Shown piece after piece: positions 3,449-50,525 of a DNA stretch of 64,000 nucleotides. Position 1 is the first letter of the stretch. Every line of letters begins with the position of its first letter. The stretch lies in contig RDXO01000017.1 of the NCBI GenBank assembly GCA_004292675.1, forward strand, positions 17,099-81,098. The letters are read 5' to 3'. The translations under genes were made by a program, and so were the position numbers. The DNA comes from Alphaproteobacteria bacterium. Lineage in GTDB: Bacteria; Pseudomonadota; Alphaproteobacteria; Rickettsiales; UBA998. The notes beneath the pieces are model-generated. The model searched no databases, was not told the DNA's origin, and saw only the letters and a list, made by a program, of their open reading frames with translations.

Positions 3449-5410
3449 TTATCCACCAATGCTTAGTTCCGAAGATGAACCACGTTGCACGCGAGGCGTA
3501 GGGTTTGGGCTTACATGTGTGCCATTGGTTTGCTCATTGCATGTTCCGATGGAAAGTTCTTTCGTGGGTGTTGTGCCTAGCGAAAGTTCTTGGCTTGATT
3601 GCCTTGTGTTCCCACGTTCTTCAGATGGCGTATTCCGAAGGCGATCAGGATGCAGGCTTGCAGGGGGCGTTTTGTTGTAAAAGAAATCTAAGAGTTCACG
3701 CGCTGAGGGAGTATCTTTTAATCCGTTTGCCCGTGCTTCTATGCCTAATTGTTCGGCAGTGGCATACATGATTTCTTGTTTGCGTTCTTGAAAGCGTTCA
3801 ACGGCAGTTTCAACAGTGATACCATGGCGTTGTTTGAACTCTTGATTAAATGCATCCGAGCGTTGCTTTGCATCTTCCAATCGTTGTTTGGCTGCTTCCA
3901 CTTCTTCAGGATTCGGGGTGCGACGTGGTGCTTTTGGGTCATTACGATCGCGCAAAATGGGATCATTCGCTGCTCGCATCACTTCTTGACGGTGCGCTCT
4001 TGCTTCCACTAAATCCTTCCCTGTCACTTTGGTTTGTGGGTCACTATAACCCATTTCTTCAGGACTCATGGCGTGGATGGCTTTGAGCGTCGCGTGCATT
4101 TGTTTGCCTGTTTTTGACATGCTGCTATAACCGCCATCACCATTGGCTGCCAATTCGTTAAAATCTTTTCCTTGCCCTGCACCCGTGAACATATTCATCA
4201 GGAATGAGAAGAAGGATTTTAGCGCGCCGCCGATAGTATCAAAAATACTTCCAAAAAATGATTCATCTTTTCTGTTGATGCCACGATCAAGTGCGGTACG
4301 CACGGCATTGAATTCGCTATCAGAGTTGAAAAAATTGGAATCACGCATGGAGCGTAAGATATTATTGCCATTTTCATCACTGAGTGGGCGTGTTGCGGGA
4401 GGGGGAGGATTGGTTGATGTGGATGGAGTGGTGGTTGTTGGAGTGGTGGTTGTTGGAGTGGTGGTTGTTGGAGTGGTAGTTGTTGGAGTGGTAGTTGTTG
4501 GAGTGGTAGTTGTTGGAGTGGTAGTTGTTGGAGTGGTAGTTGTTGTGGATGGTGTTGTAGTTGGTTGTGGAGTCGTGGTAGTTTGTGTGCGATGACTCAC
4601 TAATTGCGTTGTTGGGGCGGTTGGCTGTGGTTGTGGCACAGCGAGTTCTGATGTTGATTGTGGTGCAGGTGCAGCGGGTACTGACTTTTGCGCAGCGGGA
4701 GCTGGCGTTGGCTGTGGTTGCGGTGCTGGTGCAGCGGGAGCTGGCTTTTGTGTAGCGGGAGCGGCGGGTGCTGGTGTTGGTTCTGGCGCAGCAGGTGCTT
4801 GCGTTGGCTTTTGTGCAACGGGAGCTGGCGTTGGTTCTGGTACTGGCGCAGCGGGTGCTTGCGCAACTTCACGTGTTTGTGGAACCATAGAGACAAGTTG
4901 TTGCTGCAGCGGTTGACGTAACATATCAATGCTGATTGTCGGTAAATTGAGAGGAGCTTTGCTATTAGCGTACTTCACAATATCATTAACAAAGCCCATA
5001 TATCTTGCTGTTAAATTATCTCCTTGCATGGTTTGCATATAATCGTTTGCAATAGCGTTGGAGAGTGCTTCTCCTGCAAGTGTTGGATTGGCGTTTGCCA
5101 CTTTATGAACTGATTCATGTAATTTCATACTCGCATGTTGAGCAAATTCCCCCTGCAATGCGACTTGCAGCGTTTGTGAAGGAGTGCCATGCCAAGGAAT
5201 GCCATAATTGCTTGCTAAGTTTGAGACATGTTGTGTTAATTCAGCACCTGGGTTAATCAATCCGAAGTTAATATTTTCTGCGCCTCGTACCTTGCTAAGA
5301 ACACCCTCAATACCCCCTTGCATACCATTTTGTTGTAACGAGTTATTGATAATACTCAATGCCGTTACGTTGATTTCTTGTGGGGTCATGGTAAGAATAT
5401 TATTCGTCAT
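3449..5410 (-). CDS. Orphan hypothetical protein with Pro/Ala- and Thr/Pro-rich mucin-like linker; candidate secreted effector
   Basis: 653-aa ORF, AGGT upstream of ATG, no recognisable domain or signal peptide. Confidence 0.8.
   Translation of the reverse strand: MTNNILTMTPQEINVTALSIINNSLQQNGMQGGIEGVLSKVRGAENINFGLINPGAELTQHVSNLASNYGIPWHGTPSQTLQVALQGEFAQHASMKLHESVHKVANANPTLAGEALSNAIANDYMQTMQGDNLTARYMGFVNDIVKYANSKAPLNLPTISIDMLRQPLQQQLVSMVPQTREVAQAPAAPVPEPTPAPVAQKPTQAPAAPEPTPAPAAPATQKPAPAAPAPQPQPTPAPAAQKSVPAAPAPQSTSELAVPQPQPTAPTTQLVSHRTQTTTTPQPTTTPSTTTTTPTTTTPTTTTPTTTTPTTTTPTTTTPTTTTPTTTTPSTSTNPPPPATRPLSDENGNNILRSMRDSNFFNSDSEFNAVRTALDRGINRKDESFFGSIFDTIGGALKSFFSFLMNMFTGAGQGKDFNELAANGDGGYSSMSKTGKQMHATLKAIHAMSPEEMGYSDPQTKVTGKDLVEARAHRQEVMRAANDPILRDRNDPKAPRRTPNPEEVEAAKQRLEDAKQRSDAFNQEFKQRHGITVETAVERFQERKQEIMYATAEQLGIEARANGLKDTPSARELLDFFYNKTPPASLHPDRLRNTPSEERGNTRQSSQELSLGTTPTKELSIGTCNEQTNGTHVSPNPTPRVQRGSSSELSIGG
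4425..4544. repeat. Coding tandem repeat, 8 x 15 bp GGAGTGGTRGTTGTT (TTTTP units on the minus strand)
   Basis: Units start at 4425, 4440, 4455, 4470, 4485, 4500, 4515, 4530; G variant in the first 3 units, A variant in the last 5. Confidence 0.97.
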
Positions 5411-5442
5411 AGCGATTACCTGATTGTGGGGGTAATGAGTGA

Positions 5443-6081
5443 TTAGGTGAGAGAAGGTGAGGTGGTACGGGTACGCTCGGTTGCAACGGTTGGGGTTGGC
5501 GGAGGAGGCGCAACTTCAACTTTTCCTTCCTTAGTTGGTTCGTGCGTTGTTGGTGATGCAGCAGGAGTCGAAGATTGCGATGCCACTGCTTGTTGTGCAA
5601 GAATCTCTTTAGTTCTTTTTTCCACGGGGGCGCGAACAAAACTCGGCATGGGGATACGATCAAGAACAAATTGTTGCATTTCTTGCGGAAGTTTTCCCAC
5701 CAATGAAGCAATACCGCCACCCACGGCATCTAATGCAGGGGACACAACATTATATGCGCGGGTAATGTGCGGTTCAATGTTTTGTTGATACCATGTCAAA
5801 AGTTTGGATCGCGCTGGTTCTGTTTTTTTATCCACGGTTTGGACGAACTCTTGCCGTATCGGGTCTACGTGCTTGGCTATATCTTGTGCGCCCGGAATTT
5901 TATTCAAGGTTTCTGTGATGTTACGCACAGGGTCCCATTGCTGCACTAAGTTTCCAACCAAATTCAATGCATTTTCAGCATTGATTGGGTTGCTATCAGG
6001 TGCAATGGTGGCAGACGCAGGATTCACCGCATCTGTTGATGTGCGTTCTTTCGTAAGTAATAATGTATCTGATCTATTCAT
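5443..6081 (-). CDS. Orphan hypothetical protein, probably co-transcribed with 3449..5410
   Basis: ORF track start 6162; ATG 6081 (MNRSD) preferred, 7 nt after TATGAT; Pro/Thr-rich C-terminus. Confidence 0.7.
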   Translation of the reverse strand: MNRSDTLLLTKERTSTDAVNPASATIAPDSNPINAENALNLVGNLVQQWDPVRNITETLNKIPGAQDIAKHVDPIRQEFVQTVDKKTEPARSKLLTWYQQNIEPHITRAYNVVSPALDAVGGGIASLVGKLPQEMQQFVLDRIPMPSFVRAPVEKRTKEILAQQAVASQSSTPAASPTTHEPTKEGKVEVAPPPPTPTVATERTRTTSPSLT

Positions 6082-6116
6082 AGATACTATCATACAACTA
6101 CTTGCATTATTATTGT

Positions 6117-6134
6117 GTGAAATTTTTATGACAT
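6117..6134 (-). promoter_or_regulatory. Pho-box-like direct repeat ATGTCAT-AAAA-ATTTCAC
   Basis: 11-bp period repeat upstream of the orphan pair starting at 6081; spacing to -10 not canonical. Confidence 0.45.
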
Positions 6135-6255
6135 TTGGTAGATAGGGGTTTTTTGTGTGCATCCTAGGGAATATGTTGAATATAGGTGTTTTTTATTTAC
6201 ATATATGAACTATATAGCAAAGTTTAGAATAAAATATATTTATTATTTACTGATG

Positions 6256-6289
6256 TTGTCATATTTTTGTCACATTTTATCTGTATATT
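6256..6289 (+). promoter_or_regulatory. Pho-box-like repeat TTGTCAT-ATTT-TTGTCAC, 10 nt spacer, -10 TATATT
   Basis: Box 6256-6273, hexamer 6284-6289, upstream of orphan ATG 6386. Confidence 0.65.
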
Positions 6290-6385
6290 CAATATATATT
6301 CAATATATGGAAGCAATCCTGTGAGAAGTATCATGGGGTATAATAACATGTAATAATACTTATACATAACTCATTGGAGAAGAAT

Positions 6386-6634
6386 ATGAGCGAAGAAAAT
6401 AATGACATAGCACAGAAACCTCGGAGAAGGGAAACGGAACGAGAACGTTGTGCTAGGATGTTGGCAAAATGTCAGGAGGAATATGCTAATAATCCATCAG
6501 TCATTAGAGGGTGTTTGAGATCGAATGGATGTGCTGGATTTGCGTCAATAGAAGGCGGAGAGGAAGTGGCAAATGCTACCCCTCCTATGTGTACGCCTGT
6601 ACCAGAAAAACAAACGGGTAGTCGTGAGAGATAA
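6386..6634 (+). CDS. Small Cys-containing orphan protein (82 aa)
   Basis: GGAG at 6376-6379 before ATG 6386; 5 Cys; C-terminus ATPPMCTPVPEKQTGSRER. Confidence 0.65.
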   Translation: MSEENNDIAQKPRRRETERERCARMLAKCQEEYANNPSVIRGCLRSNGCAGFASIEGGEEVANATPPMCTPVPEKQTGSRER

Positions 6635-6649
6635 ATAGAGTACGTTTCC

Positions 6650-6693
6650 ATAGAGCGCGTTGGACATACCCCATCTGATGCAACGCGCTCTAT
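6650..6693. repeat. 13-bp perfect inverted repeat ATAGAGCGCGTTG...CAACGCGCTCTAT (short palindromic element or terminator-like hairpin)
   Basis: Arms 6650-6662 and 6681-6693, just after the stop at 6634. Confidence 0.8.
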
Positions 6694-6752
6694 ACTCGAT
6701 ATGTGCATTTTCTGCTGTACTTCTTCTTCATAAGATTTTATAAAATGGGGAT

Positions 6753-7955: not shown

Positions 7956-7960
7956 GGGAA

Positions 7961-8011: not shown

Positions 8012-9493
8012 TTATAATCCCAATGCGGGTTTATACATGCTTGCTGCCACAAAGCGACTCATGGATACAAGATAGCGTTCTACGGCTTTGACATGGCGCA
8101 CTCGTGCTTCTGCTAAGGTTTCTTCCCGTAAGTTAAGCAAAAAGAAGTCGCTTGCGCCATCTTCAAAGCGCAACCGTTCTGCTTGCAATAGGGCTTCTGC
8201 CACCTGCATTTCTTCCGCTGTGATCTGCATCATTTGTTTGCCAATGGATAAATCATTTTCGATGGTACGCAGAGCAATCAAGATTTGCTCATTCATACGG
8301 GAGCGATCCAGTGCGATCATGCGTTTATCGGCATCTGCCATCCTGATACGCCCTTCCGCTTGGCGTGTTTGCAACGGAATGGATAGCTGTAATTTTACAC
8401 GCGATTCAGTTTGCTCATAGATGCGCTGATCATTACCCACATCTTGTGACACTTCGGTGCTGAGATCAAGTTTGGGGAGGATTTGATTTTTGGCAAGTTT
8501 ACGGTTTTGGTCAAAACGACGATCCAGCACATCAAGACGGCGGAGATCGGGGCGACGCGTGATGAGATCCTTGGCAAGATGGATAATCCCTTCATCATGG
8601 TGATATTCTTGATGCGCCCCCCATGCCATATCCGCCCAACTGAGATCAAAATCTTTGGGCAAGGATGCATCATTAGGAAGCAGTGGCGCGCCCTCAGCAT
8701 CACGATGATAGAAGGATAAATCTTGCGCACTGCTTACCCAAGAACGTTTTGCATCGCGCAGTGCGGATTTACGCTTAAGCATATTTTGCTGGTTTTCCAC
8801 AAGAAAGATTCGGGCTTTATTGCCTGCATTCACCTCTGTGGTGAGGGCATCTTGACGATTATTCGCAAGTCGCCAAATATCTTTGCGTATGCCATATTCA
8901 AGCCCACGCGATACCCATCCCCAATAGGAAGTAATTGCGGCAAGTTGCGCATTAATCTGTTCAAGCTCAAGTGCTAATTTTGATTCTTCAAGGCGGAGTT
9001 CTTCATCAATAATGGCAAAACGACGGCTATCAATATCACGATCACGTAGTAATGAGAAAATCGCACCCACCGCGATTTCTCCGCCATCTTGGGTACGGAA
9101 TTTTCCCTCATAGGAAGGGTAATCCCCACCAGAGATACCATATTGGGCATAGACGCGTGTATTAAAATCTGCAATAGGCTGATTCAGACGCAGTGCGCTG
9201 TAGCGTCCATCATAGAACCCTGTGCCACGAAGATCATGATTTCCATCAAGTGTGGGATCAAACGCTCCTTGAGCAGAAAGTACCGCAGCTTCTTGTCGGG
9301 CAATGCCTTCTTTGGCGCGCAAAATTGTCGGCAAATGCTGAGCTGATCGCTCCAGCACGTCATGGGGCATGAGAGGGTTTGCACATGCCTGCCATGCACT
9401 CACGCTGCTTAGGCTGAAGCAGAACGCCCATAGGAGAGTTTTTTTATAGGACTTATGCAGTTGTCCGCAAAATAAAAGATTATTTTTTAACAT
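8012..9493 (-). CDS. TolC family outer membrane channel
   Basis: AQGAFDP N-terminal motif, two OEP-like helical repeats; operon with HlyD and ABC genes. Confidence 0.88.
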   Translation of the reverse strand: MLKNNLLFCGQLHKSYKKTLLWAFCFSLSSVSAWQACANPLMPHDVLERSAQHLPTILRAKEGIARQEAAVLSAQGAFDPTLDGNHDLRGTGFYDGRYSALRLNQPIADFNTRVYAQYGISGGDYPSYEGKFRTQDGGEIAVGAIFSLLRDRDIDSRRFAIIDEELRLEESKLALELEQINAQLAAITSYWGWVSRGLEYGIRKDIWRLANNRQDALTTEVNAGNKARIFLVENQQNMLKRKSALRDAKRSWVSSAQDLSFYHRDAEGAPLLPNDASLPKDFDLSWADMAWGAHQEYHHDEGIIHLAKDLITRRPDLRRLDVLDRRFDQNRKLAKNQILPKLDLSTEVSQDVGNDQRIYEQTESRVKLQLSIPLQTRQAEGRIRMADADKRMIALDRSRMNEQILIALRTIENDLSIGKQMMQITAEEMQVAEALLQAERLRFEDGASDFFLLNLREETLAEARVRHVKAVERYLVSMSRFVAASMYKPALGL

Positions 9494-10562
9494 CGGCTTT
9501 CCTGATCAGATCAGTGTTGTTGGGCGGGAAGCCATTGAGCTGTCGCCATAATTCAAATCCAAGTGGCACGGTATCAAGTAATACCCATGCTTGTACTTTC
9601 GATCCATAACGTAGGTAGGTTTCATTAGGCCAGTGATAAGAACCATCATGATGTGGGGTGGATTCTGTGATGGGTTCTGGTAGAATCAAGACACGAAATT
9701 TTCCGCTTAAAGATGCCGCAGGATCAACGGATAAAACACGCCCACGGAATGTTCCCACTGCCGTTTCAGGCCATCCACTAAATTGCAGGGCAGGCCACCC
9801 TTCAAAGATCATACGTACTTCGCGGTTAGGCTTGACAAGAGGCGCATCAAGACCGCTGATAAAAAGTTCTACTGCCATCGAATTATTATCGGGCAAAATA
9901 TCTGCCAAGCGATCACCGCTTTTCACAAAACTTGCCGTGCCTGATGTGCGCATATTGGTAATCATCCCATCAGTAGGGGCAATGATTTCTTGGGTGGAAA
10001 GGCGGGAAAGTTGCACTTGCGATTTATTAAAGGATGCCCGAGCATCGCGTGCTTTGGCTTTTTTCTCTTTATAGACGATTTTAGCCTTTTCATATTCTTT
10101 TCGTGATGCAAGCCCTTGACGGAAAAGATTTTCTTGTCGCTTATAATCGAGGCGGGCAGTATCGCTTGCAATCTCTGCATACTCAACTTTTTGGCGCATG
10201 GCATCCCGATCGCCTTCTAAGCGTTGCAATAATTGCGGATCATTATCCACTAAACGAGCAATGATTGTTCCTGCTTTCACATGCTGTCCATCACGCACCA
10301 GCCATTCTTGAATCCGCCCATCGATCATAGCGGTGATAGGTTGTGGGCGTTGTGCGGGATCAAGCGCGGTGATCGTTCCTTGTCCTTCAGAGGTTTGCAC
10401 CCATGGCGTGAACATGAGTCCTACAAACATCACGAGCAAGGCCGTTAATAACATGCGCGCAATAAATCGTCCTGCACGGGGCATACGCTGGTTGTGCAAC
10501 GTCGTAAATAGGTTCGTATGCTCTGGGTTATATTGAATATGGATGATTGGTTCTGCGCCCAT
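9480..10562 (-). CDS. HlyD family membrane fusion protein
   Basis: TM then PWVQT..G, lipoyl-like hairpin (IDGRIQEWLVRDGQHVKAG), FEGWPALQFSGWP motif. Confidence 0.9.
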   Translation of the reverse strand: MGAEPIIHIQYNPEHTNLFTTLHNQRMPRAGRFIARMLLTALLVMFVGLMFTPWVQTSEGQGTITALDPAQRPQPITAMIDGRIQEWLVRDGQHVKAGTIIARLVDNDPQLLQRLEGDRDAMRQKVEYAEIASDTARLDYKRQENLFRQGLASRKEYEKAKIVYKEKKAKARDARASFNKSQVQLSRLSTQEIIAPTDGMITNMRTSGTASFVKSGDRLADILPDNNSMAVELFISGLDAPLVKPNREVRMIFEGWPALQFSGWPETAVGTFRGRVLSVDPAASLSGKFRVLILPEPITESTPHHDGSYHWPNETYLRYGSKVQAWVLLDTVPLGFELWRQLNGFPPNNTDLIRKADVKK

Positions 10563-10573
10563 GACTATGCTCC

Positions 10574-12307
10574 TTATCGCTCACTGTGACGATGCGCTTC
10601 ATAGTCGGCGCGTGATTGATAATAATATTGGGTGGTTGCTGTGATGTCCATATAACCATCAAAGCCATCCAAAAATTGCGCATTGCTGCAATAGAGGAAG
10701 GTGAATGGCAAGCCCATGATCCGTTGCAATATACGTTCACGCACGTCGCTATGCAGTGCATCAAACAGACCGTTAATAATCAACATACGCGGACGCGCAA
10801 GAAGTGCTGCGGCTAATTTCAAACGCATCATTTCCGAAAAATGCAGTGGATCACCCGAGGGGCGAATGATGGTATCTAAGCCTTCAGGGAAGTCTAAGAT
10901 GATCCTATCTAATTCCACCATATGTAGGGCATCGATCATCTCATCATGGGTGGCATCGTCTTTGCTTAAGCTGAGCCAATGGCGTACACTGCATTCCATC
11001 ATATGATGATTATCAAGGATGATCACGCCATCTTCAACGGAACGGGCATCTAAATCACGAAGATTGATGCCGCCGAGGGCAATGCGCCCTTTATAATGAT
11101 GAGTATTTTTGCGGATGAGTTCAAAGAGGTAATATTCAATCTGATGGGTTGCGATGCGCGCCATGATATTTGATCCCGCAGCAAGAGCAAAATCAAAGAT
11201 GATGGGTTCAGTCTGCCCATGATAATGCACATGCTGCATTTCTAAACGTATCGCGTCTGCTTCAGGGAGTATCAGCGATCCTTCTTGGTGATGGGGAGGG
11301 AGCGTATAAAAATCGGTCATTTTCTTGCAGGAGGTGAATAAATCATAGAAATCATTCAAATGATAAGCAAGGCGGGTGATGTTGTAAAAAATAGCAGCCA
11401 TGATTAATTCGGCGGCTACTAATTGTGCAATCGTCAATTCTGCTCGAATAACCAACATGCCACCAATACCAAGCAAGGTGGAGCTTCCTAAGGCATAGAG
11501 AAGCAAAAAGCTGATATGCTGTGAGAAATAACTACGGAAAAACTTCTGCCGCTTCATGACATAATCGGCAGAAGCCTCATTGACGCGCTCACATGCGTGA
11601 ATGGTGTGCCGTTGTGAACGAAAAAGGGGATTATAAAGCGTTAATTCGCTAATAATCCGAGCAGTTTCATATTTGGCATCGGATACTTTAGTTGCGCGAT
11701 ATTTCGCTTGATGACACCAAAGTCGCCACACCACAAAGACATACACGGCGGTAAACATATTTAGTGCAAACAAAAAAGGATGGTATAAGGATACCAGAAC
11801 TAATCCTACGGAGGCTTGCAAAATTAGGGAAAATCCTCGCACCAACAGGCTTGGCAATGTTTTTTGAATATTCATGATTTCAAAATAGCGATTCGCAAGC
11901 GTGGTAGGATTGCGATCCGCGAGTGCATACGGATCGCAATAGAGCAAGCGTAATGTTATATCGCGGGTGATGCGCGTATAGATATGGCGTTCCATCGTCT
12001 CAACAATATAAATTTTCAAAGAATTGAGTAGTGCGGAAAATAAGAGTACCACGCATAAAATCATCGCTAAAATAATGATAGGCATCATCATCATCATGTT
12101 GGTGACGCTGCTGATGAGTGCTTGCACGGAAATAGGGATGGCGAGCGTAAATAAACTTGTGACAATGCCATAAAGGAACAAGGCAACGTAAAACCTACGT
12201 TCAGGAGCAAGTATGGTTTTGGCTAATGACCAAAAACTTGGAAGTTCTGTTTTATATGATGTGGGTTCTTCCATAGATGAATCGGTAATAGAGTGTAATA
12301 TATCCAT
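10574..12307 (-). CDS. ABC exporter transmembrane domain plus degenerate nucleotide-binding domain (T1SS-like)
   Basis: ABC TMD (LAIPISVQALI, NRYFEIMNIQK, LTIAQLVAAELI); no Walker A; signature region reads LHFSEMMRL. Confidence 0.8.
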   Translation of the reverse strand: MDILHSITDSSMEEPTSYKTELPSFWSLAKTILAPERRFYVALFLYGIVTSLFTLAIPISVQALISSVTNMMMMMPIIILAMILCVVLLFSALLNSLKIYIVETMERHIYTRITRDITLRLLYCDPYALADRNPTTLANRYFEIMNIQKTLPSLLVRGFSLILQASVGLVLVSLYHPFLFALNMFTAVYVFVVWRLWCHQAKYRATKVSDAKYETARIISELTLYNPLFRSQRHTIHACERVNEASADYVMKRQKFFRSYFSQHISFLLLYALGSSTLLGIGGMLVIRAELTIAQLVAAELIMAAIFYNITRLAYHLNDFYDLFTSCKKMTDFYTLPPHHQEGSLILPEADAIRLEMQHVHYHGQTEPIIFDFALAAGSNIMARIATHQIEYYLFELIRKNTHHYKGRIALGGINLRDLDARSVEDGVIILDNHHMMECSVRHWLSLSKDDATHDEMIDALHMVELDRIILDFPEGLDTIIRPSGDPLHFSEMMRLKLAAALLARPRMLIINGLFDALHSDVRERILQRIMGLPFTFLYCSNAQFLDGFDGYMDITATTQYYYQSRADYEAHRHSER

Positions 12308-18238: not shown

Positions 18239-20347
18239 ATGACAACGCACTCTAAAAAACATGAACCAGTATCCTTGAAGCGTGATCGCACCCGTTCGGG
18301 AACACCTTATTTTTATCGTGATACGCCCAGCGGTCGTAGACGGCAGACGCAGAGTCGATTGCGTCGTTTTTTCTCATGGCGAGGTATGATAAAGAATTTC
18401 TTTATCCTACTGGTGTTCCTCATGCTTGTGGGGTGTGCGTTTCTTGCTTATTATATTGTCATGCTTCCTGATATTAGTGGGTTAGCAAAATCGAAAGAAG
18501 AAGCAGGGGTAGAGATATTAGCGATGGACGGGACGGCGGTTGCACGTTATGGGCAAATTAGCGGTTCGTTTGTTGAGTTTGAGCAATTACCCCCGCATCT
18601 GATTCATGCGGTTATTGCCACGGAGGATCGTCGCTTTTTCTCCCATTTTGGGGTGGATGTTAAAGGGGTGCTTCGTGCTGTGGTGGTGAATGTGCAATCA
18701 GGACGTATGACGCAAGGTGGCTCTACCATCACGCAACAATTAGCAAAAAATCTGTTTTTTAGCCCAGAGCGCACCTTGAATCGTAAGATGCAGGAATTGG
18801 TGATGGCGTTGTGGCTTGAGCAGAATTTTAGCAAAAAAGAGATATTAGCGATTTATCTTAATCGTGTCTATATGGGGGGCGGGAGCTACGGTATTGAAGC
18901 GGCTGCACGTTTTTATTTTGATAAGCCTGCCGTGCAACTTGATCTTGTGGAATCTGCAATGATTGCAGGGATGCTGAAAGCACCGTCACGCTACAACCCA
19001 ACATCGGATAAAGCACGCGCTATTAAGCGTACTACGCAAGTATTGTTTAATATGCATGATGCGGGCTATTTAGGGGAAACTGAGATGCGTGCTGCCATCG
19101 CTTCCTTGACGGATGGTAGCCGAACATTCAAACAAACCTTGTTTAGCAATCAACGTTATTTTACTGATTGGATTATGGAGCAAGTGCCTGAATATGTTGG
19201 TGAAATCAATGAAGATATGGTGATTAAAACCACCATTCAACCGCAATGGCAAGGAGCAGCAGAGCGTTCTATGGCTGCGGTGATGACGGCTGAAGTGCGC
19301 AAAGCACAGCGCGTGTCGCAAGCAGCCTTCATTGCCATGAGTCCTGATGGTGCAGTACGGGCAATTATTGGAGGGATTGATTATAATAAAAGCCAATATA
19401 ACCGTGCAACGCAAGCCAAGCGTCAACCTGGTTCGGCATTTAAGTTATTTGTCTATCTTGCCGCCATGGAGCATGGATATACACCTGATACGGTGATGAT
19501 GGATACACCCATTACCATTGGGCGATGGACAGCGCGTAATTATGAGGATAAATATCGTGGTAACATGACATTGCGTAGTGCGTTGGCGCAATCCTCCAAT
19601 GTGATTGCGGTGCGACTAACGCAGATGGTGGGCGTGAGTAATGTCCGTAACGCCGCAAAGCGTTTGGGTGTGCTATCCTATATTCCTGCCTATCCAAGTA
19701 TTGCTTTAGGCTCTGTAGAGATGAGCTTAGAAGAATTAGTGCGTGCTTTTGCGCATATGGCACATAATGGTAAGGCTGTGAAACCCTATGGCATATTAGA
19801 AGTACGACGCAAGCGTGATGGCAAAATGCTTTATCAACGCACCCAACGCGATGATTATAGTGATGTGACCGTCGTTGCAGAAGAACAAGTGAAAAAGATG
19901 AACACGATGCTCTCTGAGGTGATTAATAGTGGCACAGGGCGTTCCGCACAGATCGGGCGACCTGTTGCGGGCAAAACGGGTACGACTTCTGATTATAAAG
20001 ATGCATGGTTTATTGGATATACGCCGCAATTAGTGGCAGGGGCATGGGCGGGCAATGATGATGCTACACCCATGCGCAAAGTCACAGGTGGTGGTATTCC
20101 AGCACGTATATGGAAAGGATTTATGATGGAGGCACTCAAAGGCATGGCGGTTGCACCATTGCCACGCTATGAACCCGTGTGGCAACCGCCTGCAACCTTG
20201 CCATGGCTGAATCAGTCGTCCTCGTCTGCACCTGCTCCCGTTCCCGTGACACCGCAAGCACCCGCACAGGATTATCAGTTGCAGGATAGTTTTTGGGATA
20301 AACTCTTTGATGAATCCGATGTTGAATATCGTTATCCGAGTGAATAG
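18239..20347 (+). CDS. Class A penicillin-binding protein (PBP1A family)
   Basis: EDRRFFSHFGVD, QGGSTITQQLAKN, SAFK (SxxK), SSN, GKTGT. Confidence 0.95.
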   Translation: MTTHSKKHEPVSLKRDRTRSGTPYFYRDTPSGRRRQTQSRLRRFFSWRGMIKNFFILLVFLMLVGCAFLAYYIVMLPDISGLAKSKEEAGVEILAMDGTAVARYGQISGSFVEFEQLPPHLIHAVIATEDRRFFSHFGVDVKGVLRAVVVNVQSGRMTQGGSTITQQLAKNLFFSPERTLNRKMQELVMALWLEQNFSKKEILAIYLNRVYMGGGSYGIEAAARFYFDKPAVQLDLVESAMIAGMLKAPSRYNPTSDKARAIKRTTQVLFNMHDAGYLGETEMRAAIASLTDGSRTFKQTLFSNQRYFTDWIMEQVPEYVGEINEDMVIKTTIQPQWQGAAERSMAAVMTAEVRKAQRVSQAAFIAMSPDGAVRAIIGGIDYNKSQYNRATQAKRQPGSAFKLFVYLAAMEHGYTPDTVMMDTPITIGRWTARNYEDKYRGNMTLRSALAQSSNVIAVRLTQMVGVSNVRNAAKRLGVLSYIPAYPSIALGSVEMSLEELVRAFAHMAHNGKAVKPYGILEVRRKRDGKMLYQRTQRDDYSDVTVVAEEQVKKMNTMLSEVINSGTGRSAQIGRPVAGKTGTTSDYKDAWFIGYTPQLVAGAWAGNDDATPMRKVTGGGIPARIWKGFMMEALKGMAVAPLPRYEPVWQPPATLPWLNQSSSSAPAPVPVTPQAPAQDYQLQDSFWDKLFDESDVEYRYPSE

Positions 20348-24824: not shown

Positions 24825-25565
24825 CTAATTTTTGATCCAGCTCATCTGCTCAGGGGCATAGTGCTGTGGGTTGAATGCGACAATAGTTTCACCACCAACG
24901 GCAACGCTATCACGTGCAACATGCACCTTATAGTGAGATGGCACATAAATATCGCACCGGCTACCAAAGCGAATAATACCATAACGATCACCTTGGGTGA
25001 TTTTTTGCCCATCATGTAGTTCACACACAATACGACGTGCAACAAATCCTGCAATTTGTACAAAGCTGAGTATGTCCCCATGTTCGGTACGTACCGCAAC
25101 GATGGAGCGTTCATTCTCATCACTCGATTTATCTTCAGCAGCGTTGAGGAATTTTCCGGGTATGTAGATTTTCTTGAGGATGTCTCCGCTCACAGGAACG
25201 CGGTTTACATGCACATTAAATACGTTGAGAAAGATGGAAATGCGCGTATAATTTGCCCCTAGATCCTGCATCCCTAATTCTTTGGGGAGCATCACCTGCT
25301 CGACAATATCACAGACGATGCCATCACCTGATGCAACCACAAAGCCATCACCTTGTGGCACCATGCGGTCGGGGTTACGAAAGAAATAGAGCGAAAAAAT
25401 ACTCAATACCAAGAATAAGCACCCAACAGGCGTATAGAACGCATAGCCAAGCGCACTCAAGAAAAGAAAGCCAAAAATGAACGGCTTACCTTTAGGATGC
25501 GTTCCGACACATAAGGTTTGTTTGGTGGTGGCAATGATCGACATATAAACTCGCTTTGACAGCAT
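24825..25565 (-). CDS. psd: Phosphatidylserine decarboxylase proenzyme
   Basis: FFRNPDR, ISIFLNVFNVHVNR, NER, QIAG..ARRI, IRFGSR (pyruvoyl-forming Ser); true start may be a few codons downstream. Confidence 0.93.
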   Translation of the reverse strand: MLSKRVYMSIIATTKQTLCVGTHPKGKPFIFGFLFLSALGYAFYTPVGCLFLVLSIFSLYFFRNPDRMVPQGDGFVVASGDGIVCDIVEQVMLPKELGMQDLGANYTRISIFLNVFNVHVNRVPVSGDILKKIYIPGKFLNAAEDKSSDENERSIVAVRTEHGDILSFVQIAGFVARRIVCELHDGQKITQGDRYGIIRFGSRCDIYVPSHYKVHVARDSVAVGGETIVAFNPQHYAPEQMSWIKN

Positions 25566-33228: not shown

Positions 33229-35325
33229 ATGAGTAAAAAAACAGATGGACTGTACCAATTTAGTGGTGATTCCCCGATTGCGGAAATTTATTTCCGTCAG
33301 CGTGAAGGGGGCGTGGTGCAGGCGTTCATGAAGCCGAAAGCAGGTGCGACATCACTAGAAGTTGGTGACTTGCCCGTACAGTTGGCAAAAAAAGGCATTG
33401 GCGGAGCATATGCCGATGTGCGCGAAGGCGAAAACGTCCTTTCCCTGCCTCCGATGAAAGATGAAAGCCAGCTTATTGGCGTATTGCAAGAGATGGGCAT
33501 GGTGCGTGGTGCTGTGCAGCGTCAGGATGTGGCGCGTGAAGATTTGGCGAAACAAAGTGCGTGGGATGAATTCCGTAGCCGTACTATTGAGCTTTCAGGC
33601 TATGCTGCTATTCCCGGTTATGCCGCGATTTTCGCTGATGGTCTGTGGGCAAGCAAAGTTAGAGATCCATACCTTGCCGTCACGGCGGCAGGGGTGGTTA
33701 AGCCACTCACTATGTTGCGTTATGGTTCAGGTGATAAAAATGCGGAGATTAATCATGTCATTGAAGGCTTGGATAATCATTTTTATGCATCGGGCAATCC
33801 ACTGCCTATGCGTGATGATGTGTCCCCTGAGCGCAATACATTAGAGAAAGTCGATGATTTTATCCGCAAGAACTCCGTGACGATTGCTTATACCGTAGGT
33901 TCGGCAGCGGCAGCAGCAGGTATGTATTCTGCGGTGAATCAGAAGAAAGGTGTCTTTGAATCAGAGAAAGATGCAGAAGGTAAACCAATTAAGGTGTTCA
34001 AATATCATGATACGGATAAAGACGGAAAACCTTATCCTAAGTTCGATAAACAGGGAAATAAATTTCCTGATAGTTTGAAAGATCCAATTTATAATAGCAG
34101 AGATAAAACCCATGAATACACTGAAAAGCCTTTAGAAGTCAATGGTCGTTATAAACTTGCAAAAAATCCTGATGGTAGCGATAAGTTCACACCTGAACCC
34201 ATCAACTGGGAACGTCTTATCTTAAACACCACCACATTCGTAGGGAACGGACTGGTTGCGATTCTGCCTGCAAAGGAAGAAAATCCTGATGTCGCACGCA
34301 AAAAACGCCATGATGAAGCAGAAAAAGAACCTGTGGAAGTGGTGAGTATTGAGAATGTTGGCAACATGATCAAAGGCTTCGGTGAATTTGTTGGCACAAA
34401 GACCATGCAATTTAATGGTTTGTTCAATTTCTCGGACATTCTGTGCTGGGCGCGTGAAACAATGAAGGAAGCGCATAAGCTGAGCAAAGGTGACTTAGAA
34501 GGAAATGAACAAGCACGCCCTTGGTTGATCGGGATCACCACTGCATCGCTTGGTGCATCCATCATCCTTGAGATGCTTTCTTCTAAAAACTTGTCGCAAG
34601 AAGAAAAACTTGCGCAATTTGATAAAATCTATGCAACCTGTGCGCAATCGCTTCTGCAAATGCCAGAAGAAAAACGTGCGGGGACAATGCAGGAAATGGC
34701 AACGTATCTTGCCGCGCAAGATTCCCTCTATGTTGCAGGTGTCACATCGGATATGGTCAAAGGTCATATTGAAGAACGCCTCAGCATTATGGAACACAGC
34801 CCATGGGTGCGCACATTCTCGCGTGCATCTGATAAGGCGGACAATTTAACCCTAACTTCATCTAACACAACATCCAAGGAGAATATTATGACTGAAGCTG
34901 CAACCGTGGCTACCCATGAAACAAATGCACATGTTGCACCTGTTGCACATCATGAAACACCAGTGCATACTACGCCTGCTGCACCTGTTGCGGAGCATAA
35001 GCCTGTTGAACATGCTGCACCTGTTGCGGAGCATGAAGCACCAGTGCATACTACGTCTGCTGCACCTGTAGCGCATCATGAAGCACCAGTGCATACTACG
35101 CCTGCTGCACCTGTAGCGCATCATGAAGCACCAGTGCATACTACGCCTGTTGAACATGCTGCACCTGTTGCGGAGCATAAGCCTGCTGAACTCACGCATC
35201 AGGAAAAAGTAACGCATTTAGAGAATTCTTTGGCACATCCTGCAGTGCCGGGAACATCATCTCTTGATTCAGTTCACCCTGTAGGTAAGGTTGCGGAAGC
35301 CTCTCTTCAAAGAGCGGTATCATAA
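33229..35325 (+). CDS. Orphan multi-hydrophobic-segment protein with His/Pro/Ala-rich C-terminal repeats
   Basis: 698-aa ORF with GAGGT RBS; internal AAGGAG and in-frame ATG at 34888. Confidence 0.8.
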   Translation: MSKKTDGLYQFSGDSPIAEIYFRQREGGVVQAFMKPKAGATSLEVGDLPVQLAKKGIGGAYADVREGENVLSLPPMKDESQLIGVLQEMGMVRGAVQRQDVAREDLAKQSAWDEFRSRTIELSGYAAIPGYAAIFADGLWASKVRDPYLAVTAAGVVKPLTMLRYGSGDKNAEINHVIEGLDNHFYASGNPLPMRDDVSPERNTLEKVDDFIRKNSVTIAYTVGSAAAAAGMYSAVNQKKGVFESEKDAEGKPIKVFKYHDTDKDGKPYPKFDKQGNKFPDSLKDPIYNSRDKTHEYTEKPLEVNGRYKLAKNPDGSDKFTPEPINWERLILNTTTFVGNGLVAILPAKEENPDVARKKRHDEAEKEPVEVVSIENVGNMIKGFGEFVGTKTMQFNGLFNFSDILCWARETMKEAHKLSKGDLEGNEQARPWLIGITTASLGASIILEMLSSKNLSQEEKLAQFDKIYATCAQSLLQMPEEKRAGTMQEMATYLAAQDSLYVAGVTSDMVKGHIEERLSIMEHSPWVRTFSRASDKADNLTLTSSNTTSKENIMTEAATVATHETNAHVAPVAHHETPVHTTPAAPVAEHKPVEHAAPVAEHEAPVHTTSAAPVAHHEAPVHTTPAAPVAHHEAPVHTTPVEHAAPVAEHKPAELTHQEKVTHLENSLAHPAVPGTSSLDSVHPVGKVAEASLQRAVS
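34936..35190 (+). repeat. Coding imperfect tandem repeat, 6 units beginning GCACCTGT (APVAHHEAPVHTTPA / APVAEHKPVEHA)
   Basis: Mostly 45-bp units with shorter and longer variants, visible in DNA and protein. Confidence 0.92.
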
Positions 35326-36817: not shown

Positions 36818-37837
36818 CTATTTTGTTTTTTGTGGAGTAGGTGTTGGAGCGGAAGGTGTGGATAAGGGTGGCTGATTTGCCGTGACGCTAACGCCTTGAG
36901 TTGGTTGTACAGTCTCTTGCGGATCAAGAATGTAATAGGTGCTTCCTTTTTTGAGTCCTAGACGAGCTGCTTGTTGTTTGAATTTTTCTACATCTTCATC
37001 ACGCACCACAGGGCAACCTTGTGATCCTTTGGGGCGTGATGCATCTTCGTTTGCAAAGAGGAAATCATTATGCGCTCCAATATAATCACGTTCTTTTTTC
37101 CCATCATCATATTCAAGAAAGAATTTGAAATTCATGGGTTGCCCGTCAATAATTTCTGTTGAGGCGGTATCATGATATTGGGTGATGGTGCGTTTTGCAT
37201 GTATGCCATCGCCCACCTTTCCGCTTGAATCGGTTAATAATCCCGGTAGGGGCGCGTTGCGTGCAGATTCTACCGCATCACTATTGGCAAAATTGGGTAC
37301 ATCAACCTTTTTGCTTCCGCCAGAAATGAAAGGGATAAGTTCTTGTTTTCCATCTTTTTCAAAGACATGGAATCCCATCGCATAGGGATGACCATCGGCA
37401 TGTTGCCCCGCTTTGATGGTGACCATGGCATACACACCCTTTGCACCTGCTTCTTGTTTGATGGCATCAGGGATTTTAATGCGCCCTTGGTAATCCGCAG
37501 GGTTTAGCCATTGTGTATCATTATCTTTTGTTTGATAGGATAAGGTTTGCACGGGAGCGGGTGCAGGTGCAGCTTGAGGCGCAGGAGCAGGCGGAACATA
37601 ATTGACAGGTACGGTTCGTGGTTGCACAACAGGAGGAGGGGGTGTTGTTGTCGGTGTGACGGCTGGGGCAGGAGCAGCTTGCGCTTGTTGCCCTCCGAAT
37701 AATCCGCCAAACATTGATCCTATATTGGGTAGGATGGATGCCATAAATTGTTGTATCTGGGGAAAAAAATTGCCGATCATCGACATAATCTTGCTGAAGA
37801 ACCCCATAATAGGGTTTTGTGGTGTATTATTATCCAT
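36818..37837 (-). CDS. Orphan protein with L,D-transpeptidase (YkuD)-like catalytic motif
   Basis: AAGGA RBS; H-X15-S-Q-G-C (IGAHNDFLFANEDASRPKGSQGCPVV); amphipathic N-terminus, Pro-rich linker and tail. Confidence 0.7.
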   Translation of the reverse strand: MDNNTPQNPIMGFFSKIMSMIGNFFPQIQQFMASILPNIGSMFGGLFGGQQAQAAPAPAVTPTTTPPPPVVQPRTVPVNYVPPAPAPQAAPAPAPVQTLSYQTKDNDTQWLNPADYQGRIKIPDAIKQEAGAKGVYAMVTIKAGQHADGHPYAMGFHVFEKDGKQELIPFISGGSKKVDVPNFANSDAVESARNAPLPGLLTDSSGKVGDGIHAKRTITQYHDTASTEIIDGQPMNFKFFLEYDDGKKERDYIGAHNDFLFANEDASRPKGSQGCPVVRDEDVEKFKQQAARLGLKKGSTYYILDPQETVQPTQGVSVTANQPPLSTPSAPTPTPQKTK

Positions 37838-38901: not shown

Positions 38902-39633
38902 ATGTCATTTTTCCACTCATTGCGCACACAGTTGCTTGTTCCGTTATATCCTGCGATGCGACACTATGTGTATGCCTTTCTTGCTTTTTCTGCAATCATG
39001 GCATTGGTAGTGCCATCTGTGGGTTGTTGGTTTGTTCCTTTGGCGGTGGCGATCAATTATTTTTACCGTGATCCGCAACGATCTGTACCGCAAGGAGCAG
39101 GATTTGTGGTGGCACATGCTGATGGTATTATTGATCGTATCGAACATGGGGTGTTATTACCTGAAGAAATCCGCACTACCCTACCAGAAGATGTGCAGCA
39201 ACAATCATTTGTGCGTATCTCTATCTATATGAGTTTGTTGGATAATCATATACAGCGTGCGCCTGTTGCGGGTGTGGTGGAGCGTGAGATATTCGTGAAA
39301 GGGATGTATAGCAATGCACAACAGATAGAAGCAGCGCAAAGAAATGAACGCAGCCTTATGGCACTTAAGACGCAGGAAGGGGAATATATCATCTGCTCGC
39401 AAATTGCAGGTGCGATAAGCCGTGTGGTCGTATGCCAAGCCTTTGAGGGGGATGCATTAGAACGCGGTGCGCGCTATGGTATCATCCGGTTTGGTTGCCG
39501 TGCGGAGCTGTTTATTCCGATGAATTATGCCCTATTAGTATCTGAGGGAACAACCGTCCGTGCAGGAGAAACGATCATGGCACTTCATGCGGATGGCTGC
39601 AATATGGGTGCGCTTACGTGGAAGATCGTGTAA
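38902..39633 (+). CDS. Phosphatidylserine decarboxylase paralog with Cys in place of the pyruvoyl-forming Ser
   Basis: FYRDPQR, ISIYMSLLDNHIQRAP, NER, QIAG, YGIIRFGCR. Confidence 0.85.
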   Translation: MSFFHSLRTQLLVPLYPAMRHYVYAFLAFSAIMALVVPSVGCWFVPLAVAINYFYRDPQRSVPQGAGFVVAHADGIIDRIEHGVLLPEEIRTTLPEDVQQQSFVRISIYMSLLDNHIQRAPVAGVVEREIFVKGMYSNAQQIEAAQRNERSLMALKTQEGEYIICSQIAGAISRVVVCQAFEGDALERGARYGIIRFGCRAELFIPMNYALLVSEGTTVRAGETIMALHADGCNMGALTWKIV

Positions 39634-48226: not shown

Positions 48227-48382
48227 AAAGCGTTCCTTGAATTCTGAAAATGAACAATGCGTCATCTTAACAAGAAGTGATCACAGGAGCAAGCAGGAAT
48301 TACAAGACGGGGGTGTTATTTCAATCTTTGCGTGGCACATGAGCCATGCAAAAAATGCATTGCACTATTTTTGTCGATGCGA

Positions 48383-48400
48383 CTGTCATTTAATCTTCAC
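48383..48400 (+). promoter_or_regulatory. Pho-box-like repeat CTGTCAT-TTAA-TCTTCAC
   Basis: Upstream of orphan ATG 48471; TATAAT at 48444 is not at the 10-nt spacing. Confidence 0.5.
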
Positions 48401-48470
48401 ATTTATGCTGCGGTTACGCCTATCATTTTGCGCCACACAATGGTATAATGCTAACTATTCAAGGCAATGT

Positions 48471-50525
48471 ATGACACAAAATATACTGAACCAACAACGT
48501 GATTCTCTTGCGTGTACCGAAACGCCAGTAGGCAAATTGATCGCGCAAGGGCTAGAGTTCGCACTCGGTAAACATAGCGACAAGCCTGATATTGTCTATA
48601 AACATAGTGGATCACCTGCTGAAGTGCAGAAAAATAATCGCCTTGTCTATGGTGATGGGCGTGAGCTAGAGATCGCACCTTTACGCGCTCCTGATAATGA
48701 AAATCCTATCCATATGGTAAGTACTGTTCTTCCCACCACACCGGGATATTTTCGCTTGCTTAGCCCGATGTTGGGGATACGCTATTCTGTTGATGCGGTA
48801 ACAAAAGTTGGATTGGATTTGTTCGCTCGTGAAAAGGGCTGTTTGGAATTTTTGTTTGCAAAGCCCATCAAAGAAAGCGTCACTCTTATAGAGAGTGTTG
48901 CCAAAGATATGGCGAAAAACGCGAAAAATATGGGAGGTAATTTTGCAACTGTTCACGCCAATATCACTAAGGATGCTAGCTATGAGTCTCTTACCCACGC
49001 TATTGATCCGAAAATGCTTCAAAAAGTGCAGGATGTTCTTGCGTCCTCTGGAAAATTAGGTCATTGGGAAAAGGATTTGCGATCATTGACGACGCAATAT
49101 TATGCGCAATCAATGCTTCCTGATCCTGAAGCATTATCCCTGCTTCCAGATAATATAAGTGCTGGAAATTTTTTGGCTCAGTCGAAAGGAAATTTCGCAC
49201 AATCGCTAAAAGATCGTAGCGATAAACTCGAATCGATGTATAATCGTACCTTTTTTGATAGCGCGCTTGGAGCATTAAGTTTTGGCGCGACATGGTATTA
49301 TGCCCGTCGTGTGTATGAAGATATTCACAACACCTATGCTGAAACGGTTGCGTATGAACTCTATGATGAAAATAAGAAGGATGTCACCATAACGGCGGTG
49401 GATTTAGCGTGTTCGCAAAATAAAATGGTTAAGGAAACGTGGGATAATTTTGTTGCAAAAAATGTAGCACGCGTGGCAACGGATATTGGGTTTTTCGGGC
49501 GCGCTATTGCGCATGGTGTTTCTGCTGTCTGTGAACAAGCCAATATTCCTGTCCATCCTCTGATTCAGTATGCGAAGAATAATGTGCCTTTTGGGGATCT
49601 TATGCTTGGGGTGAAATCCCTCATGTTGGTATCGGAAACCCAACGTACCAAGACCTCGATGCTGGATGATTTGCAAAATTTGATTGATCATAAGTTCAAT
49701 CCACAGCATGGCATGGGAATCCCTATCACTGCGGGTGATCTGCTTGATATTTATCAGAAATATCAAGAAATTCATCATCCAGAACGTGTCTTAAAAGATG
49801 TCACGCATCATGATCGAGAAGATACCACGGAGTCACGGCAAGCATACAGAATATTCTCGCGCATGGCCGATATGATGAATCAGAATTATAAATATAAGCA
49901 TTTTTCTGATCCTGCACAAGACCCCATTGAATACATTAATATGCAGATATTGGCAAAGCATGAATATTTCAGCTTGCCGAAATTCTTCTTTCTATTGGGG
50001 CATGATTTGATTGATCTAACAAAGCCTGAACGCACTATTGCATTGGCAGAAGTTGCTAACCTTTATAGTATTCAGTGCGTTAAAGAAATAGTTCGGTTGG
50101 AGCGTGACCATCCTAATTCGCCGTTCGTGGATTTATTGGAGCATTACCCTGTGAATGTGGTGCGTACTTTGGGAAGTGATACGTCTCCTGAATTTGTTCG
50201 CATGAGTGAAGTGAATGAGCGTGTAGAACGTGGTATTATTCATACATTTTTAGATCATCCGCATAATCAGGAAATCAAGGATTTATATAATAAAATTGCG
50301 GTTCATAATCAGCATAATGGCGCAGGAGCGCATGAAAATATCGCAGAACATATGCACCGTATACAACATTTGATGGAAAATGCCGCTATTTGCACCTCGG
50401 GGCAGATATTGCCTGCTGAGGCGCAACCATCCTTTGGGCGTGAAACACCAGATCATCGTGTGGTGGAAGCCTCACGTGAGCCAATGCACCCCGCCATTAC
50501 GCCGTCAGCGCGTTTTATACGTTGA
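48471..50525 (+). CDS. Orphan hypothetical protein
   Basis: ATG 48471 after AAGG (the ORF-track start overlaps the aceB upstream region); 684 aa. Confidence 0.78.
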   Translation: MTQNILNQQRDSLACTETPVGKLIAQGLEFALGKHSDKPDIVYKHSGSPAEVQKNNRLVYGDGRELEIAPLRAPDNENPIHMVSTVLPTTPGYFRLLSPMLGIRYSVDAVTKVGLDLFAREKGCLEFLFAKPIKESVTLIESVAKDMAKNAKNMGGNFATVHANITKDASYESLTHAIDPKMLQKVQDVLASSGKLGHWEKDLRSLTTQYYAQSMLPDPEALSLLPDNISAGNFLAQSKGNFAQSLKDRSDKLESMYNRTFFDSALGALSFGATWYYARRVYEDIHNTYAETVAYELYDENKKDVTITAVDLACSQNKMVKETWDNFVAKNVARVATDIGFFGRAIAHGVSAVCEQANIPVHPLIQYAKNNVPFGDLMLGVKSLMLVSETQRTKTSMLDDLQNLIDHKFNPQHGMGIPITAGDLLDIYQKYQEIHHPERVLKDVTHHDREDTTESRQAYRIFSRMADMMNQNYKYKHFSDPAQDPIEYINMQILAKHEYFSLPKFFFLLGHDLIDLTKPERTIALAEVANLYSIQCVKEIVRLERDHPNSPFVDLLEHYPVNVVRTLGSDTSPEFVRMSEVNERVERGIIHTFLDHPHNQEIKDLYNKIAVHNQHNGAGAHENIAEHMHRIQHLMENAAICTSGQILPAEAQPSFGRETPDHRVVEASREPMHPAITPSARFIR

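Follow-up and report, generated by a model that had tools for sequence, protein, structure and literature searches.

The 64,000-nucleotide stretch of DNA considered here (the window; positions 17099-81098 of contig C34) belongs to a 1.6-Mb draft genome of 45 contigs (G000; GC content ~46%, completeness 85.6%). Several orphan proteins encoded in the window end in a similar way, with a PPx(1-2)TP motif followed by a short tail. In this genome and in another genus of the same family (G005), the motif is concentrated 10-19 residues before the C-terminus of mutually unrelated proteins, and we tentatively read it as a C-terminal export tag. The gene content of the window is alphaproteobacterial, including chemotaxis genes, malate synthase and isocitrate dehydrogenase, and the genome also encodes flagellar-chemotaxis genes and PHB synthase. 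For comparison, we used a sister species (G001), G005, and an outgroup from another family of the same order (G035).

Four carriers of the motif or a variant of it are encoded in the window, and three of these genes form a cluster. p653 (3449-5410, minus strand, identified as an open reading frame (ORF) and translated) is a 653-residue orphan with a Pro/Ala/Thr-rich repeat region, which ends in the variant PNPTP followed by the 14 residues RVQRGSSSELSIGG (3452-3508, minus strand). The 239-residue orphan p239 (5443-6162, minus strand) is confined to this genus among the 41 genomes searched, and its translated tail reads PPPPTP followed by TVATERTRTTSPSLT (15 residues; 5446-5508, minus strand). 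p82 (6386-6634, plus strand), an 82-residue Cys-containing protein read and translated directly from the sequence, ends in PPMCTP followed by VPEKQTGSRER (11 residues; 6581-6631, plus strand). The fourth carrier, p339 (36818-37837, minus strand), consists of 339 residues with a core resembling an L,D-transpeptidase, as judged from the translation, a family alignment and a model; its tail reads PPLSTP followed by SAPTPTPQKTK (11 residues; 36821-36871, minus strand).

These four are among six C-termini quoted in an earlier note on the window, which had proposed a shared, basic C-terminal secretion signal on unrelated orphan proteins. All six quoted C-termini match the translated sequence exactly, none of the six proteins has a Sec-like signal peptide when inspected by eye, just as the note had claimed, and none of them matches a Pfam family at E≤0.01. 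The proposed resemblance holds for p239, p82 and p339, which carry PPx(1-2)TP, and for p653 with its variant PNPTP; the other two tails are chance matches. The PTSP of p720 (26050-28212, minus strand) lacks the PP and, with 7 residues between it and the C-terminus, falls short of the 10-19 position class. In p762 (48237-50525, plus strand), PAITP precedes the last 6 residues but reads HTAIAP in the sister species, and the tails in six other genera are unrelated, none of them containing PPx(1,2)TP. The string PAPVPVTP in PBP1A (20231-20254, plus strand), which the note had held up as a possible counter-example, falls outside the class as well, ending 30 residues from the C-terminus without PP. 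p762 itself, although it has no Pfam family, has a strongly conserved core (e.g., NxTYKYKH and YLLGHDMID) and was found in all 12 other genomes of the family searched (11 other genera and the sister species); it is absent from all eight other families of the order that were searched, and the species-genome scan gave 29 loci.

We counted the motif genome-wide in gene sets from a home-made ORF caller, which combines a simple codon-usage score with greedy overlap removal (for G000, 1504 ORFs covering 89.5% of the genome). Stop codons are fixed by the sequence, so that the C-termini are independent of start choice. For every protein with 80 or more residues, the C-terminal 30 were compared with interior 30-residue windows by Fisher's test. 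PPx(1,2)TP occurs in 4 of 1414 tails of G000 versus 7 of 12158 interior windows (p=0.021) and in one N-terminal window. Composition-matched shuffles of the tails gave a mean of 1.0-1.1, and 3 of 200 reached 4. The signal in this genome is weak and post hoc because two of its four tails lie in the window in which the motif was discovered; outside the window, two motif tails stand against ~0.3 expected (p ~0.04), and the evidence from G000 alone is marginal. The fully independent test is one genome, G005 (GC content 51%, 100% complete, 1.909 of 1.983 Mb analysed by the same procedure), where the unchanged motif occurs in 10 of 1670 tails versus 12 of 14586 interior windows (p=2.6e-5) and none of 100 tail shuffles (mean 1.5) reached 10. 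Enrichment over composition-matched controls had been set beforehand as the test of the proposal; judged by both shuffles and interior windows, it is weak in G000 and strong in G005.

The excess resides at a fixed position. Among 14 motif occurrences in G000, five, in four proteins, end 10-19 residues from the C-terminus, versus 0.31 expected from the body density of the motif (Poisson p=2.9e-4); G005 has 28 occurrences and eight proteins in the same class, versus 0.57 expected on the same basis (Poisson p=1.7e-7). The remaining 10-residue bins within 200 residues of the C-terminus hold 0-2 occurrences each. A looser P-x(1,2)-T-P, counted in 5-residue bins, shows the same peak (9 and 9 occurrences versus ~3 per bin in G000; 14 and 13 versus ~4 in G005), and when a matrix derived from G000 tails picked by hand was run over G005, 15 of its 56 matches fell in the 10-19 bin. 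The 23 tails behind the matrix-related counts were hand-chosen, with 4 of 15 G000 rows and 10 of 22 G005 rows dropped as housekeeping proteins. In G000, the loose form Px(1,3)TP shows no preference for tails (29/1414 versus 191/12158, p=0.11). Its excess over shuffles appears in tails (1.79) and interiors (1.59) alike because the TP dipeptide is over-represented throughout the proteome, with an observed/expected ratio of 1.5 overall and 1.77 in tails.

Ten decoy motifs, counted in the 10-19 class by the same procedure, indicate which residues matter. None of the ten is enriched in G000. PPx(1,2)T[not P] occurs 3 times versus 2.96 expected in G000 and 5 times versus 4.23 in G005, and Thr-Pro is thus required; the reversed or permuted PT..PP, TP..PP and PP..PT, together with PP..TA, are unenriched in both genomes. 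PP..AP and PP..VP, unenriched in G000, are weakly enriched in G005 (p=0.048 and 0.038, respectively), where the near variants PP..SP (p=0.012), SP..TP (p=0.006, the strongest decoy) and AP..TP (p=0.053) are mildly enriched.

The motif is under purifying selection. All four proline codons and all four threonine codons occur at the motif; since its codons vary freely, the constraint acts on the protein, and a conserved DNA element is excluded as the cause. When the last 30 codons of six carriers are compared between G000 and its sister species, 18 differ synonymously and 6 nonsynonymously, with 0 of these changes in the PP..TP residues; the 90 codons upstream of those tails show 49 and 21. The "disordered" tail is therefore constrained as much as the body. 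Among the carriers in the window, the p239 tail is the same in G001 without a single residue change, the last 30 codons of p339 contain 4 synonymous and 0 nonsynonymous changes, and those of p653 contain 3 synonymous changes and one flanking S>T change. G001 has an ortholog of p82 and, in addition, a second tandem paralog at L014:10687-11204 (minus strand), syntenic to window positions 6162-6634, where G000 has one copy. The best conserved part of the p82 alignment is the C-terminal GGEEVA..PPMCTP..EKQTG.RER; the two paralogs of G001 share 52% identity as a whole but hardly differ in their last 25 residues, and the N-terminal MSEENND and four cysteines are kept. Loose motif matches in housekeeping proteins are unconserved between G000 and G005, except for a structural TP in MnmG. 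A Peptidase_M91 (NleD-like) protein, G000_C8_42445, was rejected as a carrier, since PNIP replaces its loose PNTP in G001 and the tail of its G009 homolog has no such motif.

Two other features of the C-termini were noted. Terminal arginine is found in 11.2% of proteins genome-wide versus a background of 5.8%, and in 9 of 29 loose tails but 3 of 14 strict tails, and we dropped the idea that ending in Arg belongs to the motif. The string [IV]PSLT or PSLT recurs in motif tails (5 of 1670 G005 tails versus 9 of 14586 interior windows, p=0.010), for example, at G005 C4:14568-15548, C13:2809-3882, C13:3886-4932, C11:83101-84858 and C7:38360-38914, and p239 finishes in SPSLT (window 5446-5460).

The working set of carriers comprises 14 proteins: the automatic gene sets contributed 12, and two were added by hand, p653 and p82, the latter having been dropped by the gene caller. 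All-against-all BLAST connected only two pairs, p339 with G005_C13_2809 and p653 with G005_C11_83101, and both cross-genus alignments stop before the tail, the motif being nonetheless present in both genera. At E≤0.001, Pfam gave nothing for 12 of the 14, and NCBIfam nothing relevant among 10 proteins searched. The two exceptions in Pfam are G005_C4_14568 with a Glucosaminidase domain (E=3.5e-23) and G000_C43_4362 with PG_binding_1 (E=5.3e-7). The claim that the motif sits on mutually unrelated, lineage-specific proteins is borne out by this set, with only two ortholog pairs and mostly no Pfam family. Four carriers are very small (82, 83, 113 and 131 residues), and no Sec signal was seen in the carriers by inspection alone.

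p653 has one homolog outside its genus, G005_C11_83101, with 33% identity over residues 407-593; the strict motif is present in the tail of this homolog as PPLVTP, at a distance of 17 residues from the C-terminus. The C-terminal half of p653 gave no match when used as the query of a word-indexed search for homologs, and ESM Atlas look-ups of p653 (residues 380-653) and p239 gave no usable match. The low-complexity region of p653 consists of PAPA-type units and (TTTTP)n, whose copy numbers differ between G000 and G001, although both proteins have 653 residues, and its C-terminus contains three copies of ELS[IL]G. The latter was considered as an encapsulin cargo peptide and discarded, as there is no shell gene (Linocin_M18) in the four genomes searched.

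For the p339 family, a profile search of 1.84 billion representatives found 21 proteins, whereas the earlier word-indexed search had found one foreign protein, and H256, G274 and C275 are invariant among 20 members. In the AlphaFold model, the core spans about residues 100-310 with block-mean pLDDT mostly of 80-98, and the tail has low confidence. Nearly all of the top Foldseek matches, weak as they are (best E=1.1e-3), belong to L,D-transpeptidases, and the modelled core looks like an L,D-transpeptidase. Five of the eight closest members have, in otherwise unalignable tails, a P-x(1,2)-[ST]-P that stops 10-17 residues short of the C-terminus: besides PPLSTP in p339, these tails contain PPTTP in G005 (17 residues from the end), PMPTP in P0006 (14), PSTTP in P0008 (10) and PTSP in P0002 (10).

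Several carriers also contain a Gly/Phe/Met-rich hydrophobic or amphipathic segment, e.g., LGFLGGLFQGVLGFLGMIL, at G005 C4:14568-15548, C13:2809-3882, C13:3886-4932 and C14:57228-57623 and at window 36818-37837 and 3449-5410. In most members of the p339 family, this segment precedes the enzyme domain; in the G005 member and in P0006 and P0008, it lies C-terminal. We rejected it as a part of the signal: a mean hydropathy window of at least 1.5 is found in 5 of 14 carriers, all five from G005.

The genome encodes a complete rvh-like type IV secretion system (T4SS), for which the earlier note had suggested looking. VirB3-VirB4-VirB6x3 are located on contig C27, VirB8-VirB9-VirB10-VirB11-VirD4 on contig C33 (VirD4 with 460 bits), and a VirB2-like gene with a second VirB4 on C34, ~10 kb upstream of the window. 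VirD4 was found in all five relatives searched and also in the outgroup G035. The sheath of a type VI secretion system (VipB) was not found in five genomes searched, and sortase, exosortase (Exosortase_EpsH) and encapsulin had no match in four genomes. A sortase- or exosortase-type signal was excluded: the 10-19 residues after the motif are hydrophilic, no enzyme was found in those four genomes, and six carriers had no NCBIfam sorting-domain match. The window also contains a 577-residue ABC-type protein (10574-12307, minus strand) between HlyD-like (9480-10562) and TolC-like (8012-9493) genes. A pattern search detected no Walker A, ABC signature or Walker B in it; each of the remaining three ABC ATPases encoded in the window carries Walker A as well as the signature, and the Walker B pattern is matched by two of these. 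From its sequence, the product of 10574-12307 looks like a degenerate nucleotide-binding domain in an operon resembling a type I secretion system (T1SS).

Both the signalling role of PPx(1-2)TP and the identity of the machine that would read it are inferred. The motif would be a short linear recognition element, ending 10-19 residues from the C-terminus within a tail that is hydrophilic and disordered; it may mark fast-evolving proteins lacking a Sec signal for one common partner. Because the motif keeps a fixed distance from the free end, a system engaging the C-terminus, i.e., export, is favoured. Its most likely role would be that of a C-terminal export or translocation tag, and the most plausible reader would be the rvh-type T4SS through its coupling protein VirD4, with the carriers as cargo that may include the glucosaminidase, the L,D-transpeptidase-like enzyme and the peptidoglycan-binding protein. 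Among the classical readers of C-terminal signals present here, none but the rvh T4SS is uncontradicted by the data. As a whole, we hold this reading as tentative, with a considerable chance of being correct.

A number of observations weigh against export through the T4SS. The numbers are small, 12 proteins from automatic gene sets of a home-made ORF caller plus two hand-added ones, and the motif is missing in three of the eight close members of the p339 family. In G035 (GC content 32%; 600 kb of 1.88 Mb sampled), the strict motif occurs at the 10-19 position in none of 547 proteins. The carrier genes are dispersed amid housekeeping genes and do not lie beside T4SS genes, except G005_C14_121154, ~3.5 kb from a TraG/VirD4-like gene; no immunity-like neighbours were noticed in the lists of genes adjoining carriers, which were not searched systematically. 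The tails also differ in charge. By the S4TE criteria, all known alphaproteobacterial T4SS effectors have at least three His/Arg/Lys in the last 25 residues, and most have a net charge of at least +2 (PMC3814349). At least three His/Arg/Lys are found in 3 of 14 motif tails, compared with 76% and 67% of the proteomes of G000 and G005, respectively, and a net charge of at least +2 (last 25 residues, counting -1 for the carboxylate) in 0 of 14, which range from -3 to +1, compared with 26% and 20%. The motif tails are less basic than average C-termini and therefore a misfit with the classical VirB/VirD4 signal. The hydrophilic C-terminus, on the other hand, is present, the mean Kyte-Doolittle value of the last 25 residues being negative in 13 of 14. 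Finally, no result of the analysis connects the tails to VirD4 or another exporter. The idea of a basic T4SS signal has thus survived in part: the C-terminal motif and the rvh T4SS are there, the basic character of the tail is not, and nothing obtained ties the motif to VirD4.

In the G035 sample, two mutually dissimilar proteins of 838 and 309 residues end in SPSNTP plus 11 and HPSNTP plus 12 residues, both finishing in QR. This pair hints at a related tag beyond the family, although two cases are too few. Four further ORFs of the same sample (C1:156408, 150812, 170340 and 593259) share their last 16 residues, NDTPRSRATRYLSKK[FV]; the probable cause is a repeated stretch of DNA that overlaps the ends of genes.

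The tails might instead dock a partner unconnected with export, such as an adaptor, a scaffold associated with the envelope or peptidoglycan, a kinase paired with a phospho-threonine reader, or a protease for which the motif is a C-terminal degron. The motif would then lie near the end merely since disordered tails sit there. The disordered, hydrophilic tails without the T4SS charge signature are compatible with such docking, and so are the requirement for Thr-Pro, with PPx(1,2)T[not P] unenriched, and the hydrophobic Gly/Phe/Met-rich segments in 5 of 14 carriers, which may be membrane proteins. Position +3 after the threonine is Val or Leu in 12 of 23 tails, all of them hand-chosen, which weakens the count; this choice of residue presumably resembles the preferences of phospho-threonine readers. 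Docking of this kind offers no obvious reason for a distance of 10-19 residues from the free C-terminus, and no candidate partner emerged; we regard it as doubtful, if well worth keeping in mind. The motif could also be a functionless by-product of Pro/Thr-rich disordered tails and the general Thr-Pro bias. TP is over-represented proteome-wide, the loose motif is not tail-specific in G000, and its matches in housekeeping and M91-like proteins are not conserved between genomes; moreover, when 23863 gapped patterns of two or three residues were counted without bias in G000 tails, those that stood out were almost only basic ones (KxK, RxR), the best Pro-containing patterns being PK and PSxxK. Composition, however, yields 1.1 and 1.5 motif tails in shuffles where 4 and 10 are observed, same-composition decoys are unenriched at 10-19, the narrow position class recurs in two genera, and the motif is kept across genera in otherwise unalignable tails, which together render a mere by-product unlikely.

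Two further alternatives retain export and change its target or its machine. The motif might be aimed at a eukaryotic host, as a proline-directed kinase site or an SH3/WW-type ligand on injected effectors. The records of related genomes are labelled Rickettsiales or Alphaproteobacteria bacterium, and classical Rickettsiales effectors reportedly use host-mimicking linear motifs. P-x-T-P, which we take to be a MAP-kinase-type site, is present in about half of the strict motifs. Host-aimed motifs need no fixed distance from the C-terminus, though, and several carriers are peptidoglycan-active, which points to the bacterial envelope as the target. The flagellar chemotaxis genes, PHB synthase and malate synthase are also like those of free-living-like Rickettsiales (PMC9352585), and a host-directed role appears quite unlikely. 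Alternatively, a T1SS of ABC, HlyD and TolC components, such as the one at 8012-12307, might read the tail. Those genes adjoin the p653-p239-p82 cluster at a distance of 1.4 kb, T1SS signals are C-terminal and uncleaved, Rickettsiales export repeat-rich effectors in this way (PMC3417381), and p653 is repeat-rich. In T1SS substrates, the last 50 residues are rich in LDAVTSIF and poor in KHPMWC (PMC3417381, citing Delepelaire 2004). The last 50 residues of the carriers contain 38-58% LDAVTSIF against proteome means of 52-53%, i.e., without enrichment, and 12-34% KHPMWC against 17-18%, if anything higher. Considering also that the adjoining ABC protein lacks all three nucleotide-binding motifs and that carriers elsewhere are not near T1SS genes, reading by a T1SS has a similarly slim chance of being right.

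To our knowledge, the VirB/VirD4 signals of alphaproteobacteria have no fixed proline motif. Those of Agrobacterium, Bartonella, Brucella and Anaplasma are, like the tails found here, C-terminal, unstructured, hydrophilic and uncleaved, on proteins without Sec signal in bacteria with VirD4, but the thresholds of charge and basic residues that apply to them are not reached here (PMC3814349). The closest comparison within the order is RalF of Rickettsia typhi, which binds RvhD4 by a C-terminal sequence after a variable Pro-rich region (available passages of PMC4546372). The machines are alike, both being of the rvh type, with a second copy of VirB4 and the gene clusters VirB3-B4-B6xn and VirB8-B11-D4. 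RalF also lacks a Sec signal and has a Pro-rich stretch directly before a short tail, with the signal within the last 40 residues, as stated in the same passages. Unlike the tails here, that of RalF is enriched in positive charge, its binding to VirD4 has been shown whereas that of the tails here is a prediction, and a discrete motif at a fixed distance is found only here as far as those passages go (PMC4546372).

The X-Tfe effectors of the bacteria-killing T4SSs of Xanthomonadales offer another parallel, likewise close in function. They combine (PMC6536674) variable N-terminal domains, including glucosaminidase (PF01832) and peptidoglycan-binding modules, with a common C-terminal element; their genes are dispersed over the genome, and mini-ORFs consist of about the C-terminal element only, for which p82, G005_C11_82753, G005_C7_40508 and G005_C14_57228 are the counterparts here. 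An envelope-attacking N-terminal domain is present in some of our carriers (Glucosaminidase, PG_binding_1 and the L,D-transpeptidase-like p339); the others have no recognisable domain. The C-terminal elements are different in kind, the XVIPCD having ~120 residues, several motifs and a Gln-rich end (PMC6536674) and the element here being a motif of 5-6 residues in a disordered tail, and the T4SS here is of the rvh rather than the X-T4SS type. The cognate immunity gene expected immediately upstream of an X-Tfe gene was not identified for the carriers among the listed neighbours, which were not screened systematically. Pfam gave no match on the C-terminal parts of the carriers, the presence of an XVIPCD model in the library used being unconfirmed. 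The carriers thus show neither the set of features that defines RalF-type signals nor the set that defines X-Tfe-type signals. No published description of a PPx(1-2)TP tag was found by the motif string, nor in the literature on VirD4 translocation signals among the matches listed.

Three other features of the window stand apart from the motif. The TolC-like outer-membrane-factor gene of a MacAB-like operon (56100-57472, plus strand) is split into ORFs of 166 and 291 residues, its frame shifted by a direct tandem duplication of ~22-23 bp (GCAGAATTGATGCGTAGTATTGT twice) with the junction near 56565-56615. A 698-residue orphan (33229-35325, plus strand) has a His-rich C-terminal repeat (APVAHHEAPVHTTPAAPVA several times), whose number differs in G001 (671 residues). 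Two paralogous proteins of 243-246 residues (24825-25565, minus strand, and 38902-39633, plus strand), one of them encoded beside a CDP-alcohol phosphatidyltransferase-like gene, look by eye like phosphatidylserine decarboxylase.

The T4SS layout, the flagellar-chemotaxis genes and PHB synthase of this genome resemble those of the free-living-like environmental Rickettsiales of Schön et al. (PMC9352585). The sole gene set recalling host-associated life in the flagellated, higher-GC relatives of Rickettsiales that branch deeply is the rvh T4SS. Proteins with peptidoglycan-binding domains were proposed by Schön et al. as effectors of an ancestral "bacteria-killing" rvh T4SS, for which they found no verified effectors (PMC9352585). 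Going one step further, PPx(1-2)TP-x(10-19)-COOH might be a previously undescribed rvh secretion signal of environmental, free-living-like Rickettsiales-related bacteria, flagging effectors that include peptidoglycan-degrading enzymes, with the T4SS serving as an antibacterial weapon; we consider this fuller proposal rather unlikely as it stands. If the motif is indeed an export tag, its short length and fixed position would allow candidate T4SS substrates to be listed directly from the sequence of any genome of the group, and the hypothesis of an antibacterial T4SS would become testable. If the tag serves another partner, it would still be a clean, position-locked C-terminal linear motif common to unrelated bacterial proteins.

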